A stretch of DNA of 3,412 nt, from sequence record FJ483837.1. One strand, given 5' to 3'. The notes below the pieces were generated by a model. It saw only the letters and a list, made by a program, of their open reading frames with translations. It was not told the origin of the DNA and searched no databases. The position numbers and the translations under genes were made by a program. This DNA comes from Escherichia phage BZ13. Below, in pieces: positions 1 through 3,412 of this stretch; position 1 is the first letter of the stretch, and the number at the start of each line of letters is the position of its first letter.

Positions 1-82
1 GTTTTGCAAGCGACTCATTTCTGCAGTCTTTTCACCATGCCGTTAGGTTTAGATGACGGTATATCCATATACCGGAGGATCT
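1..82 (+). other. 5' untranslated leader, probably 5'-truncated
   Basis: No convincing ORF before the maturation gene; the frame of the maturation ORF is closed by TAG at 50-52. The window begins GTTTTGC rather than the GGG expected at the 5' end of MS2-like genomes, suggesting missing 5' nucleotides. Confidence 0.5.
57..74 (+). promoter_or_regulatory. Stem-loop next to the maturation-gene ribosome binding site
   Basis: CGGTATA (57-63) is the exact reverse complement of TATACCG (68-74), loop TCCA (64-67). The 3' arm abuts/overlaps the Shine-Dalgarno GGAGG (74-78) upstream of ATG 83. Functional role is inferred by analogy to structure-controlled maturation-gene translation in MS2. Confidence 0.35.
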
Positions 83-1255
83 ATGTTTCCGAAGTCGAAT
101 ATAGACAGAAATTACAAGGTTACACTTATATCTTACGACGAGAAAGGGAAGCTTGTTTCCGACGACTCTTTCGAGCAAGTCGAAAACTATCTCTTTCAAA
201 ATCGTTCGAATACGTATAAACCCGGTTATATCCGTCGTGACTTCCGAAGACCAACGAACTTTTGGAATGGCTTTCGCTATTTCAATCAGCCAGTTGGTAC
301 CTTCACTCGGAAACTCTCTGATGGTGGGAGACAAGTTGCTGATTATGGCATCGTGAACCCTAATAAGTTCACGGGCAACAGCCAGCACTTGGGGGACAAC
401 ATGGTTATTTACCCTGGTCCCTTTTCTATTAATATTGATCACCGAGCTTCTGTCGAAGTCCTCAATAAACTTTCGCAATCAAACCTCAATATTGGGGTTG
501 CAATTGCTGAAGCTAAGATGACTGCTTCATTACTCGCTAAACAATCAATAGCTCTCATCAGAGCCTACACTGCTGCAAAGCGCGGTAAATGGCGAGAGGT
601 GCTTTCTCAGCTCCTCATCTCCGAACACCGTTTCAGAGCTCCTGTTAAGGATCTCGGAGGTCGATGGCTCGAACTGCAGTACGGTTGGTTACCTCTTATG
701 AGCGATATGAAAGCTGCATATGATTTGCTTACGCAAACCAAACTGCCTGCTTTCATGCCCTTGAGGGTTACCCGTACCGTTGGCGGAACGCACAATTATA
801 AAGTGCGCAACGTCGAATCTGCAGGGGATACTTGGTCCTATAGCGATCGTTTGTCGGTGAATTACCGAATATGGTATTTCATTTCCGATCCACGGCTCGC
901 ATGGGCTAGTTCCCTTGGGCTTCTAAACCCTCTAGAAATCTATTGGGAGAAGACGCCTTGGTCTTTCGTCGTTGACTGGTTCTTACCTGTTGGTAATCTT
1001 ATAGAAGCCATGAGTAATCCTCTTGGCCTCGATATTATTTCCGGCACGAAGACCTGGCAACTCGAATCAAAACTTAATGCGACGCTTACAGCTTCGGGTT
1101 GGTCTGGAACTGCAAAGTTATCTGCATACGCGAAAGCATATGACAGGTCAACTTTCTACTCCTTTCCAACTCCTATGCCTTATGTGAAATCCCCACTTAG
1201 TGGGCTTCACTTAGCGAATGCATTAGCCTTAATCAACCAACGCCTGAAAAGGTAA
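83..1255 (+). CDS. mat: Maturation (A / assembly) protein, 390 aa from ATG 83; in-frame alternative start at ATG 53 (400 aa)
   Basis: Long + strand ORF ending TAA 1253-1255. GGAGG at 74-78 lies 4 nt upstream of ATG 83; ATG 53 has only a weak AGG upstream. The translation contains blocks recalled from the MS2 A protein (e.g. [16 protein letters not shown] vs MS2 [16 protein letters not shown]; [16 protein letters not shown] vs DARLAWLSSLGILNPL; SFVVDW; C-terminal ALALI-QRL). First gene of the canonical levivirus order. Confidence 0.88.
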
Positions 1256-1271
1256 TAATGGAGTTAGCCAT

Positions 1272-1664
1272 ATGGCAACTTTACGCAGTTTCGTACTCGT
1301 CGATAATGGCGGTACGGGGAATGTTACTGTCGTTCCTGTTAGCAATGCCAACGGCGTCGCTGAGTGGCTTTCTAATAACTCGCGCAGTCAAGCTTATCGC
1401 GTGACTGCCAGTTATCGTGCGTCAGGCGCGGACAAGCGCAAGTACACCATCAAACTTGAAGTACCGAAAATCGTTACTCAAGTTGTTAACGGTGTCGAGC
1501 TGCCTGTTTCCGCATGGAAGGCTTATGCCTCTATTGACCTGACCATCCCGATCTTTGCTGCAACTGACGATGTGACTGTTATTTCCAAGTCACTCGCTGG
1601 TCTGTTCAAAGTTGGGAACCCTATCGCTGAAGCTATCTCTTCGCAGAGCGGCTTCTACGCGTAA
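1272..1664 (+). CDS. cp: Coat (capsid) protein, 130 aa including initiator Met
   Basis: ORF 1272-1664 with GGAG (1260-1263) 8 nt upstream of the ATG. The translation (MATLRSFVLVDNGGTGNVTVVPVSNANGVAEWLSNNSRSQAYRVT...IPIFAATDD...GNPIAEAISSQSGFYA) is plainly homologous to the MS2 coat (ASNFTQFVLVDNGGTGDVTVAPSNFANGVAEWISSNSRSQAYKVT...) and, from memory, nearly identical to the group II phage GA coat. Mature length of 129 aa matches MS2/GA coats. Confidence 0.95.
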   Translation: MATLRSFVLVDNGGTGNVTVVPVSNANGVAEWLSNNSRSQAYRVTASYRASGADKRKYTIKLEVPKIVTQVVNGVELPVSAWKAYASIDLTIPIFAATDDVTVISKSLAGLFKVGNPIAEAISSQSGFYA

Positions 1665-1855
1665 TGGGTCTGAAAGCAAAACATAAGGAAAACCTATGTT
1701 CCGATTCACAGAGATCGAAAAGACTCTATGTATGGATCGCACTCGCGATTGTGCTGTCCGATTTCACGTCTATCTTCAGTCATTGGATATGGGGTCTTCT
1801 GATCCTCATTCTCCAGACTTTGATGGACTTGCCTACCTTCGTGATGAGTGTTTAA
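1664..1855 (+). CDS. lys: Lysis protein (MS2 L-like single-gene lysis protein), 63 aa, +1 frame overlapping coat stop and replicase 5' region
   Basis: ATG 1664-1666 shares its A with the coat stop codon TAA 1662-1664 (UAAUG). Basic N-terminus (KAKHK...RSKR) is followed by a hydrophobic segment LYVWIALAIVLSDFTS that closely matches the MS2 L segment LYVLIFLAIFLSKFTN, including the conserved Leu-Ser dipeptide (codons at 1754-1759). Position between coat and replicase in a different frame is canonical for MS2-like phages. Confidence 0.8.
   Translation: MGLKAKHKENLCSDSQRSKRLYVWIALAIVLSDFTSIFSHWIWGLLILILQTLMDLPTFVMSV
1681..1699 (+). promoter_or_regulatory. Translational operator hairpin (coat-protein binding site) containing the replicase start codon
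   Basis: ACAUAAGGAAAACCUAUGU: stem 1681-1685 paired with 1695-1699, unpaired A at 1686, G1687-C1694 and G1688-C1693, loop AAAA 1689-1692. The replicase AUG (1696-1698) is in the 3' arm. Same architecture as the MS2 operator ACAUGAGGAUUACCCAUGU (7 bp stem, bulged A, 4-nt loop), with A rather than U at loop position -5. Confidence 0.8.
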
Positions 1856-3294
1856 CTAAACATCCTTCACTAGGAAACAGTAATTCGGATGCACGCCGTA
1901 AGGAATTGGCATATGCCAAACTTATGGATAGTGATCAAAGATGCAAAATCCAAAACAGTAACGGATACGACTACTCTCACATCGAAAGTAGCGTACTGAG
2001 TGGTATACTCAAGACTGCTCAGGCCCTTGTGGCGAACTTGCTTACGGGTTTTGAATCTCACTTCCTGAACGATTGTTCATTCTCCAATGGAGCCTCACAA
2101 GGGTTCAAGTTGCGGGATGCAGCGCCGTTTAAGAAGATCGCTGGGCAAGCAACCGTTACAGCTCCTGCTTATAACATTGCCGTGGCCGCCGTTAAAACGT
2201 GCGCGCCGTGGTATGCTTATATGCAGGAAACGTATGGCGATGAAACCAGATGGTTTCGTCGGGTATACGGCAACGGTTTGTTTTCTGTTCCGAAGAACAA
2301 TAAAATAGATCGGGCTGCCTGTAAGGAGCCTGATATGAATATGTACCTTCAGAAGGGGGCGGGATCTTTTATAAGAAAACGCCTTCGCTCCGTCGGTATA
2401 GATCTTAACGATCAAACGTGCAATCAGGAATTAGCCCGACTTGGCAGCATTGATGGTTCACTCGCTACTATTGATCTTAGTAGCGCTAGTGATTCTGTCT
2501 CTGACCGCCTTGTCTGGGATTTACTTCCGCCACACGTTTATTCATACCTCGCTCGCATCCGTTCATCGTTCACTATGATCGATGGTCGGTTGCACAAGTG
2601 GGGCCTGTTTTCTACTATGGGAAACGGCTTTACATTCGAACTCGAGTCCATGATTTTCTGGGCTTTGAGTAAGAGTGTTATGCTGTCCATGGGTGTTACT
2701 GGCTCATTAGGCATCTACGGTGATGATATAATCGTCCCCGTTGAGTGTGCCCCAACTCTCCTTAAGGTACTATCCGCTGTGAACTTTCTTCCTAATAAGA
2801 AGAAGACGTTCACTACGGGTTACTTTCGTGAAAGTTGTGGTGCTCACTTCTTTAAAGGTGCCGACATGAAACCTTTTTACTGCAAGCGGCCAATGGAAAC
2901 CCTTCCCGATGTCATGTTGCTATGCAACAGGATAAGGGGTTGGCAGACCGTTGGTGGAATGTCAGATCCGCGGCTCTTTCCTATTTGGAAGGAGTTTGCT
3001 GATATGATTCCGCCGAAGTTTAAGGGTGGATGCAACCTGGATCGCGATACTTACCTCGTTTCACCGGATAAACCTGGTGTCACATTGGTTCGAGTCGCTA
3101 AGGTACGTTCTGGTTTTAACCATTCGTTCCCGTACGGCCATGAAAATGGTCGCTACGTCCACTGGTTGCATATGGGATCGGGAGAAGTTCTCGAGACCAT
3201 ATCCTCCGCCAGGTTTAGGTGCAAACCTAACTCGGAATGGAGAACACAGATCCCTCTATTTCCTCAGGAATTAGAGGCCTGCGTTCTCTCCTGA
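1696..3294 (+). CDS. rep: RNA-dependent RNA replicase, beta subunit (532 aa)
   Basis: Long + strand ORF ending TGA 3292-3294. Catalytic YGDD motif at nt 2716-2727 within GIYGDDIIVP; AAGGA (1685-1689) lies 6 nt upstream of the ATG. Last and largest gene of the levivirus order, with length close to the MS2 replicase. Confidence 0.95.
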   Translation: MFRFTEIEKTLCMDRTRDCAVRFHVYLQSLDMGSSDPHSPDFDGLAYLRDECLTKHPSLGNSNSDARRKELAYAKLMDSDQRCKIQNSNGYDYSHIESSVLSGILKTAQALVANLLTGFESHFLNDCSFSNGASQGFKLRDAAPFKKIAGQATVTAPAYNIAVAAVKTCAPWYAYMQETYGDETRWFRRVYGNGLFSVPKNNKIDRAACKEPDMNMYLQKGAGSFIRKRLRSVGIDLNDQTCNQELARLGSIDGSLATIDLSSASDSVSDRLVWDLLPPHVYSYLARIRSSFTMIDGRLHKWGLFSTMGNGFTFELESMIFWALSKSVMLSMGVTGSLGIYGDDIIVPVECAPTLLKVLSAVNFLPNKKKTFTTGYFRESCGAHFFKGADMKPFYCKRPMETLPDVMLLCNRIRGWQTVGGMSDPRLFPIWKEFADMIPPKFKGGCNLDRDTYLVSPDKPGVTLVRVAKVRSGFNHSFPYGHENGRYVHWLHMGSGEVLETISSARFRCKPNSEWRTQIPLFPQELEACVLS

Positions 3295-3343
3295 TAGTAT
3301 CAGGACCTCCCCGGATGGGGTGGGTGTGACCGAAAGGCCACTA

Positions 3344-3360
3344 TGGGGGTGAATCCCCCA
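3344..3360 (+). other. 3' UTR hairpin (6 bp G/C-rich stem, UGAAU loop)
   Basis: UGGGGG (3344-3349) pairs with CCCCCA (3355-3360), loop 3350-3354; exact complementarity read from the sequence. Confidence 0.6.
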
Positions 3361-3375
3361 CCGCCCAAAAGGCGG
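3361..3375 (+). other. 3' UTR hairpin (5 bp stem, CAAAA loop)
   Basis: CCGCC (3361-3365) pairs with GGCGG (3371-3375), loop 3366-3370. Confidence 0.55.
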
Positions 3376-3380
3376 TTTTA

Positions 3381-3407
3381 GGTGACTAGTTTGCTTGGCT
3401 AGTCACC
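3381..3407 (+). other. 3'-terminal hairpin preceding the single-stranded ACCCA tail
   Basis: GGTGACTAG (3381-3389) is the exact reverse complement of CTAGTCACC (3399-3407), loop 3390-3398; followed by ACCCA (3408-3412). Analogous to the terminal hairpin of the MS2 3' domain. Confidence 0.65.
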
Positions 3408-3412
3408 ACCCA

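Follow-up and report, generated by a model that had tools for sequence, protein, structure and literature searches.

The stop codon of the replicase gene in this levivirus genome lies inside a short hairpin (positions 3289 to 3305, plus strand) which, judged by comparative sequence analysis and by modelling of the fold, appears to be a genuine plus-strand RNA structure maintained by selection. The 5' arm comprises C3290-U3295, with U3289 as a possible outermost base, the loop consists of A3296-U3298, and the 3' arm comprises A3299-G3304, with A3305 as the partner of U3289. The assignment draws on an inverted repeat, the MFE structure, pair probabilities, conservation, covariation and RNAalifold. 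The hairpin is an already known part of the 3' fold of MS2- and GA-type phages, and its identification here is correct but ordinary. Its role is probably that of a local structural hairpin, which would keep the linker between the R1 hairpin and ld IX paired and would hold the 3' domain apart from the site where translation ends.

The window, by which we mean the entire 3412-nt stretch of DNA that was analysed, carries four genes in the ORF list: maturation (ATG 83 to 1255), coat (1272-1664), lysis (1664-1855) and replicase (1696-3294, plus strand). The replicase ORF encodes the 532-aa RNA-dependent RNA polymerase beta subunit and is 100% identical to ACT66720.1 of Escherichia phage BZ13. The window shares 94.5% nucleotide identity with phage GA (X03869), a group II RNA coliphage, and is itself a GA-like, group II F-specific RNA coliphage, a published isolate of Emesvirus japonicum (BZ13). 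Its 5' end is about 53 nt shorter than that of GA, and its 3' end is complete (...CACCACCCA). According to the sequence and the ORF list, the replicase reading frame ends at UGA 3292-3294 (plus strand), within the 5' arm of the hairpin. Directly 3' of it on the same strand the sequence contains an in-frame back-up UAG (3295-3297), of which U3295 belongs to the closing pair and A3296 and G3297 belong to the loop. The earlier note on this DNA made no mention of the in-frame TAG adjoining the TGA.

That note had pointed out that CCTGATA (3290-3296) and TATCAGG (3298-3304) are exact reverse complements and that they enclose the replicase TGA (3292-3294). Both observations were confirmed on the sequence, with ORF 1696-3294 ending at that codon. 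The repeat is in fact one base longer on each side, as the arms TCCTGATA (3289-3296) and TATCAGGA (3298-3305) are 100% complementary with a 1-nt spacer. When perfectly paired inverted repeats with arms of at least 7 nt and a spacer of at most 12 nt were counted across the whole window, 12 were observed compared with 2.9 ± 2.1 in dinucleotide shuffles, which means that the genome as a whole is enriched in such repeats. A repeat of that class fell over one pre-specified codon in 1.15% of dinucleotide shuffles. Perfect 8-nt repeats separated by no more than 3 nt are expected 0.25 times per window, and two were seen. By itself the repeat at the stop codon is modestly unlikely; it is the comparative data that lift it above chance.

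Folded alone, the stop hairpin forms a 7-bp stem with an AGU triloop at -7.7 kcal/mol (RNAfold). Pair probabilities were computed in a context of about 370-400 nt. The five core pairs, C3290-G3304 to A3294-U3300, each reached at least 0.97 and U3295-A3299 reached 0.77. The outer pair U3289-A3305 reached only 0.27, as U3289 is preferentially engaged in closing the extended stem of R1. The structure predicted in context is a 6-bp stem (C3290-G3304 to U3295-A3299) with an AGU triloop and a marginal seventh pair. The earlier proposal of at most a 5-bp stem with a roughly 5-nt loop was wrong, since a hairpin loop of 3 nt is allowed and RNAfold gives 6-7 bp with a triloop; structure prediction with flanking context, the check that had been suggested, did recover the hairpin. 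The GA version is fully Watson-Crick paired and has the same stability on the minus strand, whereas the DL52 hairpin, with an internal G-U pair, has a predicted stability of -10.1 kcal/mol on the plus strand and -5.6 kcal/mol on the minus strand. With no such asymmetry in GA, the assignment to the plus strand derives solely from homology and from DL52.

The hairpin is embedded in a region whose elements, all given here on the plus strand, can be placed one after another. On its 5' side stands the core of R1, the terminal replicase hairpin (3253-3277; CCUCUA.UUCC UCA GGAA.UAGAGG), which appears in the MFE structure of 3230-3412 and as helix 1 of the covariance model described below, and whose name is taken from PMC3561173. 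In a longer context the R1 stem is extended by pairing of 3239-3249 with 3279-3289 and abuts the stop hairpin. Between the stop hairpin and ld IX lies a second small hairpin, CCCC GGAU GGGG (3309-3320), present in the MFE structure; as helix 3 of the model it is 100% paired in 12 sequences. The 5' strand of ld IX, UGGGU (3321-3325), pairs with ACCCA at the 3' terminus of the genome (3408-3412) in the MFE structure of 3281-3412, the concept of ld IX being that of PMC3561173; GGGGUGGGUG at the 5' strand is invariant across groups I and II. U1, the 3'-terminal hairpin (3381-3407), was likewise found in the MFE structure, and its loop UGCUU (3392-3396) matches the conserved U1 loop in PMC3561173. 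Besides R1, the stop hairpin, the second hairpin, ld IX and U1, there are three internal hairpins in the window. The 3'-terminal 132 nt, with a z of -4.4, fold into the stop hairpin, the second hairpin, ld IX and U1-U4. The suggestion that the repeat may form the base of the 3' UTR structural domain is supported in part. A structural element where the 3' UTR begins agrees with the data, but the hairpin is not strictly the base of the domain, which is closed by ld IX (U3321-U3325/A3408-A3412). A permissive Rfam 15 scan of the whole window (E up to 1) returned nothing at or near 3289-3305.

Within group II the stop hairpin is identical in nine of the nine genomes sampled, namely the window, GA, DL20, T72, KU1 and four metatranscriptome genomes from public sequencing runs. 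The flanks are also identical for about 10 nt on each side, and the hairpin is invariant despite the approximately 10% replicase divergence of KU1 and T72. The other hairpins of the 3' UTR differ among the same genomes, while the non-coding 3' arm of the stop hairpin is kept. Taken alone, the nine group II genomes show conservation and no covariation.

Covariation was seen in comparison with group I. At the corresponding position, MS2 carries CCUCGG-UAGCUGA-CCGAGG (3390-3408), fr and an fr-like contig carry CCUCAG...CUGAGG, and DL52, DL54 and a DL52-like contig carry CCUAGUC-AGCAC-GGCUAGG. The flanks are common to groups I and II, with CUCUCC upstream and ACC(U/C)CCCG...GGGGUGGGUG downstream. 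MAFFT alone put the 3' arm of GA one column off group I, and a covariance-model alignment was used instead. The model, trained on only seven group I sequences (MS2, fr and DL52 types), matched the window at 3250-3326 with 41.9 bits (E ~5e-10) and aligned the hairpin pair for pair. In an alignment of 12 sequences from four lineages, 100% of the cells of the stop helix are paired. Three basal pairs are invariant, one pair has a one-sided change (U-G/U-A) and four have changed on both sides (GC/CG/AU, AU/GC, UA/GC/UG and AU/UA/CG); the innermost pair of the model, A3296-U3298, is physically impossible in GA. Over the whole 19-pair structure, seven compensatory pairs were observed compared with 0-2 in register-shifted controls, a count that reflects only four independent lineages and about five substitution events in an alignment fitted to the structure of the model. 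The helix also emerges from RNAalifold, which had not been supplied with it. Position, compensatory pairing and detection by the model all place the element among the local hairpins that Emesvirus genomes carry between R1 and ld IX. A lack of conservation or covariation in related phages had been named as what would speak against the element, and both were found; the remark that the repeat may have no function is disfavoured by a hairpin that is invariant in nine group II genomes and covaries with those of MS2, fr and DL52.

A wider model alignment (A4, 25 sequences) gave strong statistics and was set aside because its distant rows (E 1e-5 to 0.5) were fitted to the model and some of them are clearly not homologous. 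Viral and metagenome contigs were scanned with the pattern CCCCGN{3,5}GGGGTGGGTG; among the matches listed were chance matches in long GC-rich DNA contigs, and none of those matches was levivirus-like by BLAST. In a scan of viral contigs with the U1/3'-tail pattern TGCTTGGCTAGNNACCACCC, GA itself was the sole match.

Inside this fixed hairpin the stop codon has moved. The CUCUCC motif (3286-3291, plus strand) is conserved at the nucleotide level in groups I and II, and the alignments place it in codon phase 1 in GA and DL52 and in phase 3 in MS2 and fr. In GA and DL52 the codons are CUC-UCC and then UGA or UAG; in MS2 and fr they are UCU-CCU-CGG/CAG-UAG, a difference in frame that is due to a one-base length difference upstream. 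As judged from the aligned sequences, the conservation of CUCUCC acts at the RNA level. With the frame different across the motif, the functional stop of GA and DL52 falls within the 5' arm and that of MS2 and fr at the apex, and the back-up UAG (3295-3297) aligns with the functional apical UAG of MS2 and fr. In relatives at 53-59% replicase identity, stop and hairpin are likewise decoupled. L282 has the hairpin CCUUC-UUGACG-GAAGG with the UGA in its loop; L281, a relative of L282, keeps the hairpin, and its ORF ends eight codons earlier. In AVE017 the hairpin CCUGU-UAGU-ACAGG (L005 3401-3414) lies 17 nt 3' of the stop, and in L283 a strong hairpin also lies 3' of the stop.

Among 20 non-redundant levivirus lineages, the stop falls within a local hairpin in 13, compared with an expectation of 9.1 drawn from neighbouring triplets, which is not a significant excess (p ~0.06). 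The general rule that a replicase stop lies in a hairpin was rejected on these grounds. The significance that the earlier note had implied for the enclosed stop finds no backing either, as the stop site differs by lineage, lies upstream of the hairpin in AVE017 and L281, and shows no significant excess in hairpins. The enclosure of the stop is probably incidental, a by-product of an ORF that ends in densely folded RNA.

How, then, might a local structural hairpin work at this site? The stop hairpin would form by purely local pairing next to the extended R1 stem, and a linker between R1 and ld IX that is paired in this way could neither mispair with the 3' domain nor sit exposed as a single strand. 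As a spacer or insulator, the hairpin would thereby set the site where translation ends apart from the 3' domain, which serves to initiate the minus strand and to bind the maturation protein. A ribosome halted at UGA 3292-3294 should melt this hairpin only, since ld IX starts 27 nt past the stop. In the ribosome footprint, mRNA enters about 11-15 nt 3' of the P site, and this is the basis of the insulator idea. The distance from stop to ld IX is 27-32 nt in GA, MS2, fr and DL52, with the window at the lower end of this range; it would exceed the downstream reach of the ribosome as generally known. The stop would be inside the hairpin since the ORF runs into RNA that is already structured, and the hairpin would not be there to hold the stop.

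The tandem arrangement of stops may be explained along the same lines. UGA is known as a leaky stop in E. coli, and the adjacent UAG would be a back-up that halts ribosomes which have passed UGA before they can unwind the 3' domain. Without UAG 3295-3297, read-through of UGA would add 27 more codons up to TAG 3379-3381 and would pass through ld IX as well as three hairpins. GA, MS2, fr, L282 and L280 have a back-up stop ahead of ld IX, but DL52, L279, L022 and L020 have none, so that the rationale for a tandem stop is not general. Programmed read-through of the kind that leads from the Qbeta coat UGA to protein A1 was also considered and is ruled out by the immediate in-frame UAG at 3295-3297.

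The papers that were read contained no direct experiment on the stop hairpin in any phage. A published protein contact or function at MS2 nt 3389-3409 was sought in the CLIP paper with its supplements, NAR 2022, PNAS 2025 and the Bukina and Bozic preprint, and none was found there.

Several other explanations have to be weighed against a structural role. A chance palindrome with no selected role, kept in group II by close kinship, is very improbable. The expectation of 0.25-0.6 perfect 8-nt repeats with a short spacer per window leaves room for it, and group II genomes are 85-96% identical, so the invariance of 17 nt alone is weak evidence. However, the homologues in MS2, fr and DL52 differ in sequence yet keep the pairing, a model blind to group II sequences still detects the element in the window, and the non-coding 3' arm is conserved where neighbouring UTR hairpins vary. 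The least probable of the explanations is a replication signal, acting either as a template element for the replicase on the plus strand or through its complement near the 5' end of the minus strand. The site does lie in the 3'-terminal region where minus-strand synthesis starts, and the equal stability of the GA hairpin on both strands would suit such a signal. Three points speak against it. Of the 3' UTR, the small RNA MSRP-22, which arose by selection with MS2 replicase, contains nothing but nt 3464-3568, and it is replicated although the hairpin is missing (PMC8956599); minus-to-plus synthesis proceeds without the complement of the entire 3' trailer (PMC6847885); and the G-U pair of DL52 weakens the minus-strand version by the energies given above. 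The first two results, obtained with MS2 and not with GA, indicate that the hairpin is not in the core replication signal; that it is dispensable in a minimal MS2 replicon in vitro (PMC8956599) also means that its contribution to fitness may be small. A binding site for a virion protein, whether a coat-dimer packaging signal or a contact of the maturation protein, appears quite improbable. The analogy comes from Qbeta, in which the maturation protein is bound by U1 and coat dimers by U2 and R1, an exposed one and an internal one respectively (PMC8880383), and from the many dispersed hairpins that touch the MS2 capsid (PMC4751978, PMC10610835); the loops of group I share AGC and that of GA has AG. 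The hairpin, however, has no bulged purine and no conserved loop adenines, and its loop measures 3 nt in GA and 5-6 nt in group I. The Rfam model of the MS2 operator matches only the true operator at 1679-1699, and the length and sequence of the loop vary freely, unlike those of a sequence-specific protein site.

The hairpin might also be a translation-termination element whose purpose is to display a stop, either that of the replicase or a back-up, within the 5' arm or at the apex. Termination or recycling would then be improved, or ribosomes would be kept from slipping into the 3' domain after termination, and the end of replicase translation would be coupled to minus-strand initiation. We regard this as unlikely. 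It would account for a stop triplet in the arm or apex in GA (UGA and UAG), MS2 and fr (UAG), DL52 (UAG), L282 (UGA) and L022 (UGA), for the in-frame back-up UAG in the loop of AVE017, for the maintained distance between stop and ld IX, and for the weak excess of stops in hairpins. That excess falls short of significance, however, and the stops of L281 and L283 lie upstream, with only out-of-frame stop triplets in their hairpins. In the L017-L021/L286 lineage and in PRR1 the stops fall between or after hairpins, a decoding ribosome must melt the hairpin anyway, and experimental support was not found in the papers that were read. A narrower form of the idea, in which selection keeps a real or back-up stop in the 5' arm or apex at about 27-32 nt upstream of ld IX as a termination buffer, is very doubtful. 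If it were true, ribosomes would melt a sacrificial hairpin only and the 3' domain would never be opened. The end of replicase translation would then be coupled to the preservation or timed exposure of the minus-strand start and the maturation-protein site, and the hairpin would be a new, if minor, case of translation and replication influencing each other in RNA phages.

The significance of the hairpin is small beyond correct annotation. It is an example of the tight packing of coding and structure in 3.4-kb genomes, in which CUCUCC is conserved as RNA and read in two frames. There is also a practical side for MS2- and GA-based replicons and RNA scaffolds. Since the structured 3' trailer already starts 5' of the annotated stop, trimming a construct exactly at that codon would cut through a conserved hairpin. 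The 3' trailer of MS2 has been described as 181 nt overlapping the end of rep (Weise et al., PMC6847885), which makes it begin at nt 3389, where the MS2 hairpin itself starts.

The 3' region of the window can be compared directly with known systems. For plasmid-specific leviviruses, Rumnieks and Tars (2012, PMC3561173) described a 3' UTR scheme of R1, one or two hairpins, ld IX, the U-hairpins and U1 with the loop UGCUU. All of its elements are present in the window; the scheme is schematic, gives the hairpins between R1 and ld IX no function, and does not discuss the tandem stop. The operator hairpin (MS2 TR, Rfam RF02359; GA operator 1679-1699) resembles the stop hairpin in being short, local and placed over a translational signal of the replicase, the start there and the stop here. 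It differs in having a bulged adenine and a four-base, A-containing loop. When these operator-type features, a bulged purine and a four-base adenine loop, were looked for in the stop hairpin, neither was present, its stem being perfect and its loop AGU. In GA, KU1, BZ13 DL20 and T72 (Emesvirus japonicum) the hairpin and its flanks are the same base for base; they show no difference from the window at the hairpin and differ from it elsewhere in the 3' UTR (U2-U4). The MS2 hairpin (nt 3389-3409) takes the same position, between R1 and the CCCCG...GGGG hairpin with ld IX, has the same flanks, shares the basal pairs C-G, C-G and U-A, and likewise carries UAG at its apex. Whereas the upper stem of GA and BZ13 consists of G-C, A-U and U-A, that of MS2 consists of C-G, G-C and G-C, and the loop has 3 nt in GA and BZ13 and 5 nt in MS2. 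The functional stop of GA and BZ13 is the UGA in the 5' arm, one codon upstream of that of MS2, and the apical UAG, which ends the replicase in MS2, is the in-frame back-up in GA and BZ13.

The replicase gene ends in an in-frame UGA-UAG pair in all group II genomes. In the window the tandem stops occupy positions 3292-3297, and the next in-frame stop lies 27 codons downstream at 3379-3381. The same tandem UGA-UAG also closes the replicase of contig L280 (3494-3499), an unrelated-looking sequence with a replicase identity of 59%.

Downstream of the stop hairpin, the small conserved hairpin that encloses the replicase UGA, the predicted pairing depended on the length of the context folded. In the minimum-energy fold of a 183-nt context, ACCU (3305-3308) was paired with GGGU (3322-3325), which lengthened the second hairpin (3309-3320). 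This extension and ld IX, the long-distance pairing of 3321-3325 with 3408-3412, both need the UGGGU strand, and in a 132-nt context ld IX was formed in place of the extension. The ACCU/GGGU pairing seen in the longer fold may be an artefact of the prediction, or the RNA may adopt it as an alternative conformer.

Short inverted repeats are abundant across the window. Counting perfect repeats with arms of 7 nt or more and spacers of at most 12 nt over positions 1-3412, we observed 12 as compared with 2.9 expected from dinucleotide shuffles, an approximately fourfold enrichment in keeping with how densely levivirus genomes are folded. A perfect 8-nt repeat at 57-74 (CGGTATAT cc ATATACCG) adjoins, at its end, the start of the maturation-gene Shine-Dalgarno sequence GGAGGA (74-79) upstream of the ATG at 83, and is probably part of a 5' UTR fold that controls translation of the maturation gene. 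The lysis-gene stop TAA (1853-1855), located within the replicase coding region, is another stop codon placed in an inverted repeat, in this case at the apex of an imperfect one (1841-1870) whose arms, GTGATGAGTGTTTA and TAAACATCCTTCAC, are 79% complementary. At the replicase start, the coat-protein operator (1679-1699) scored 18.1 bits against the Rfam MS2 operator model, below its gathering score of 40, because the GA operator loop is of the AAAA type.

Among the relatives compared, the AVE017 record (L005, NC_073941/BK013361; 3470-3483) and contigs L287 and L288 have the Illumina adapter sequence AGATCGGAAGAGC at their 3' ends, which means that their 3' UTRs are incomplete and include non-viral sequence. 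An uncharacterised Emesvirus-like lineage of contigs (L017, L019, L020, L021 and L286; replicase identity 48%) has a different layout, in which a UAA stop has on either side a 4-bp hairpin with a UGAA loop (GGCA-UGAA-UGCC and CUCC-UGAA-GGAG); two further small hairpins come next, ahead of GUGGGU. Across groups I and II, the nucleotide motif CUCUCC is kept (window 3286-3291; L006 3386-3391; L007 3392-3397) and its reading frame differs between phages, being CUC-UCC in GA and DL52 and UCU-CCU in MS2 and fr. Upstream, the phages differ in length by one base, and this accounts for the stop codon lying in the hairpin arm in some of them but at the apex in the rest.
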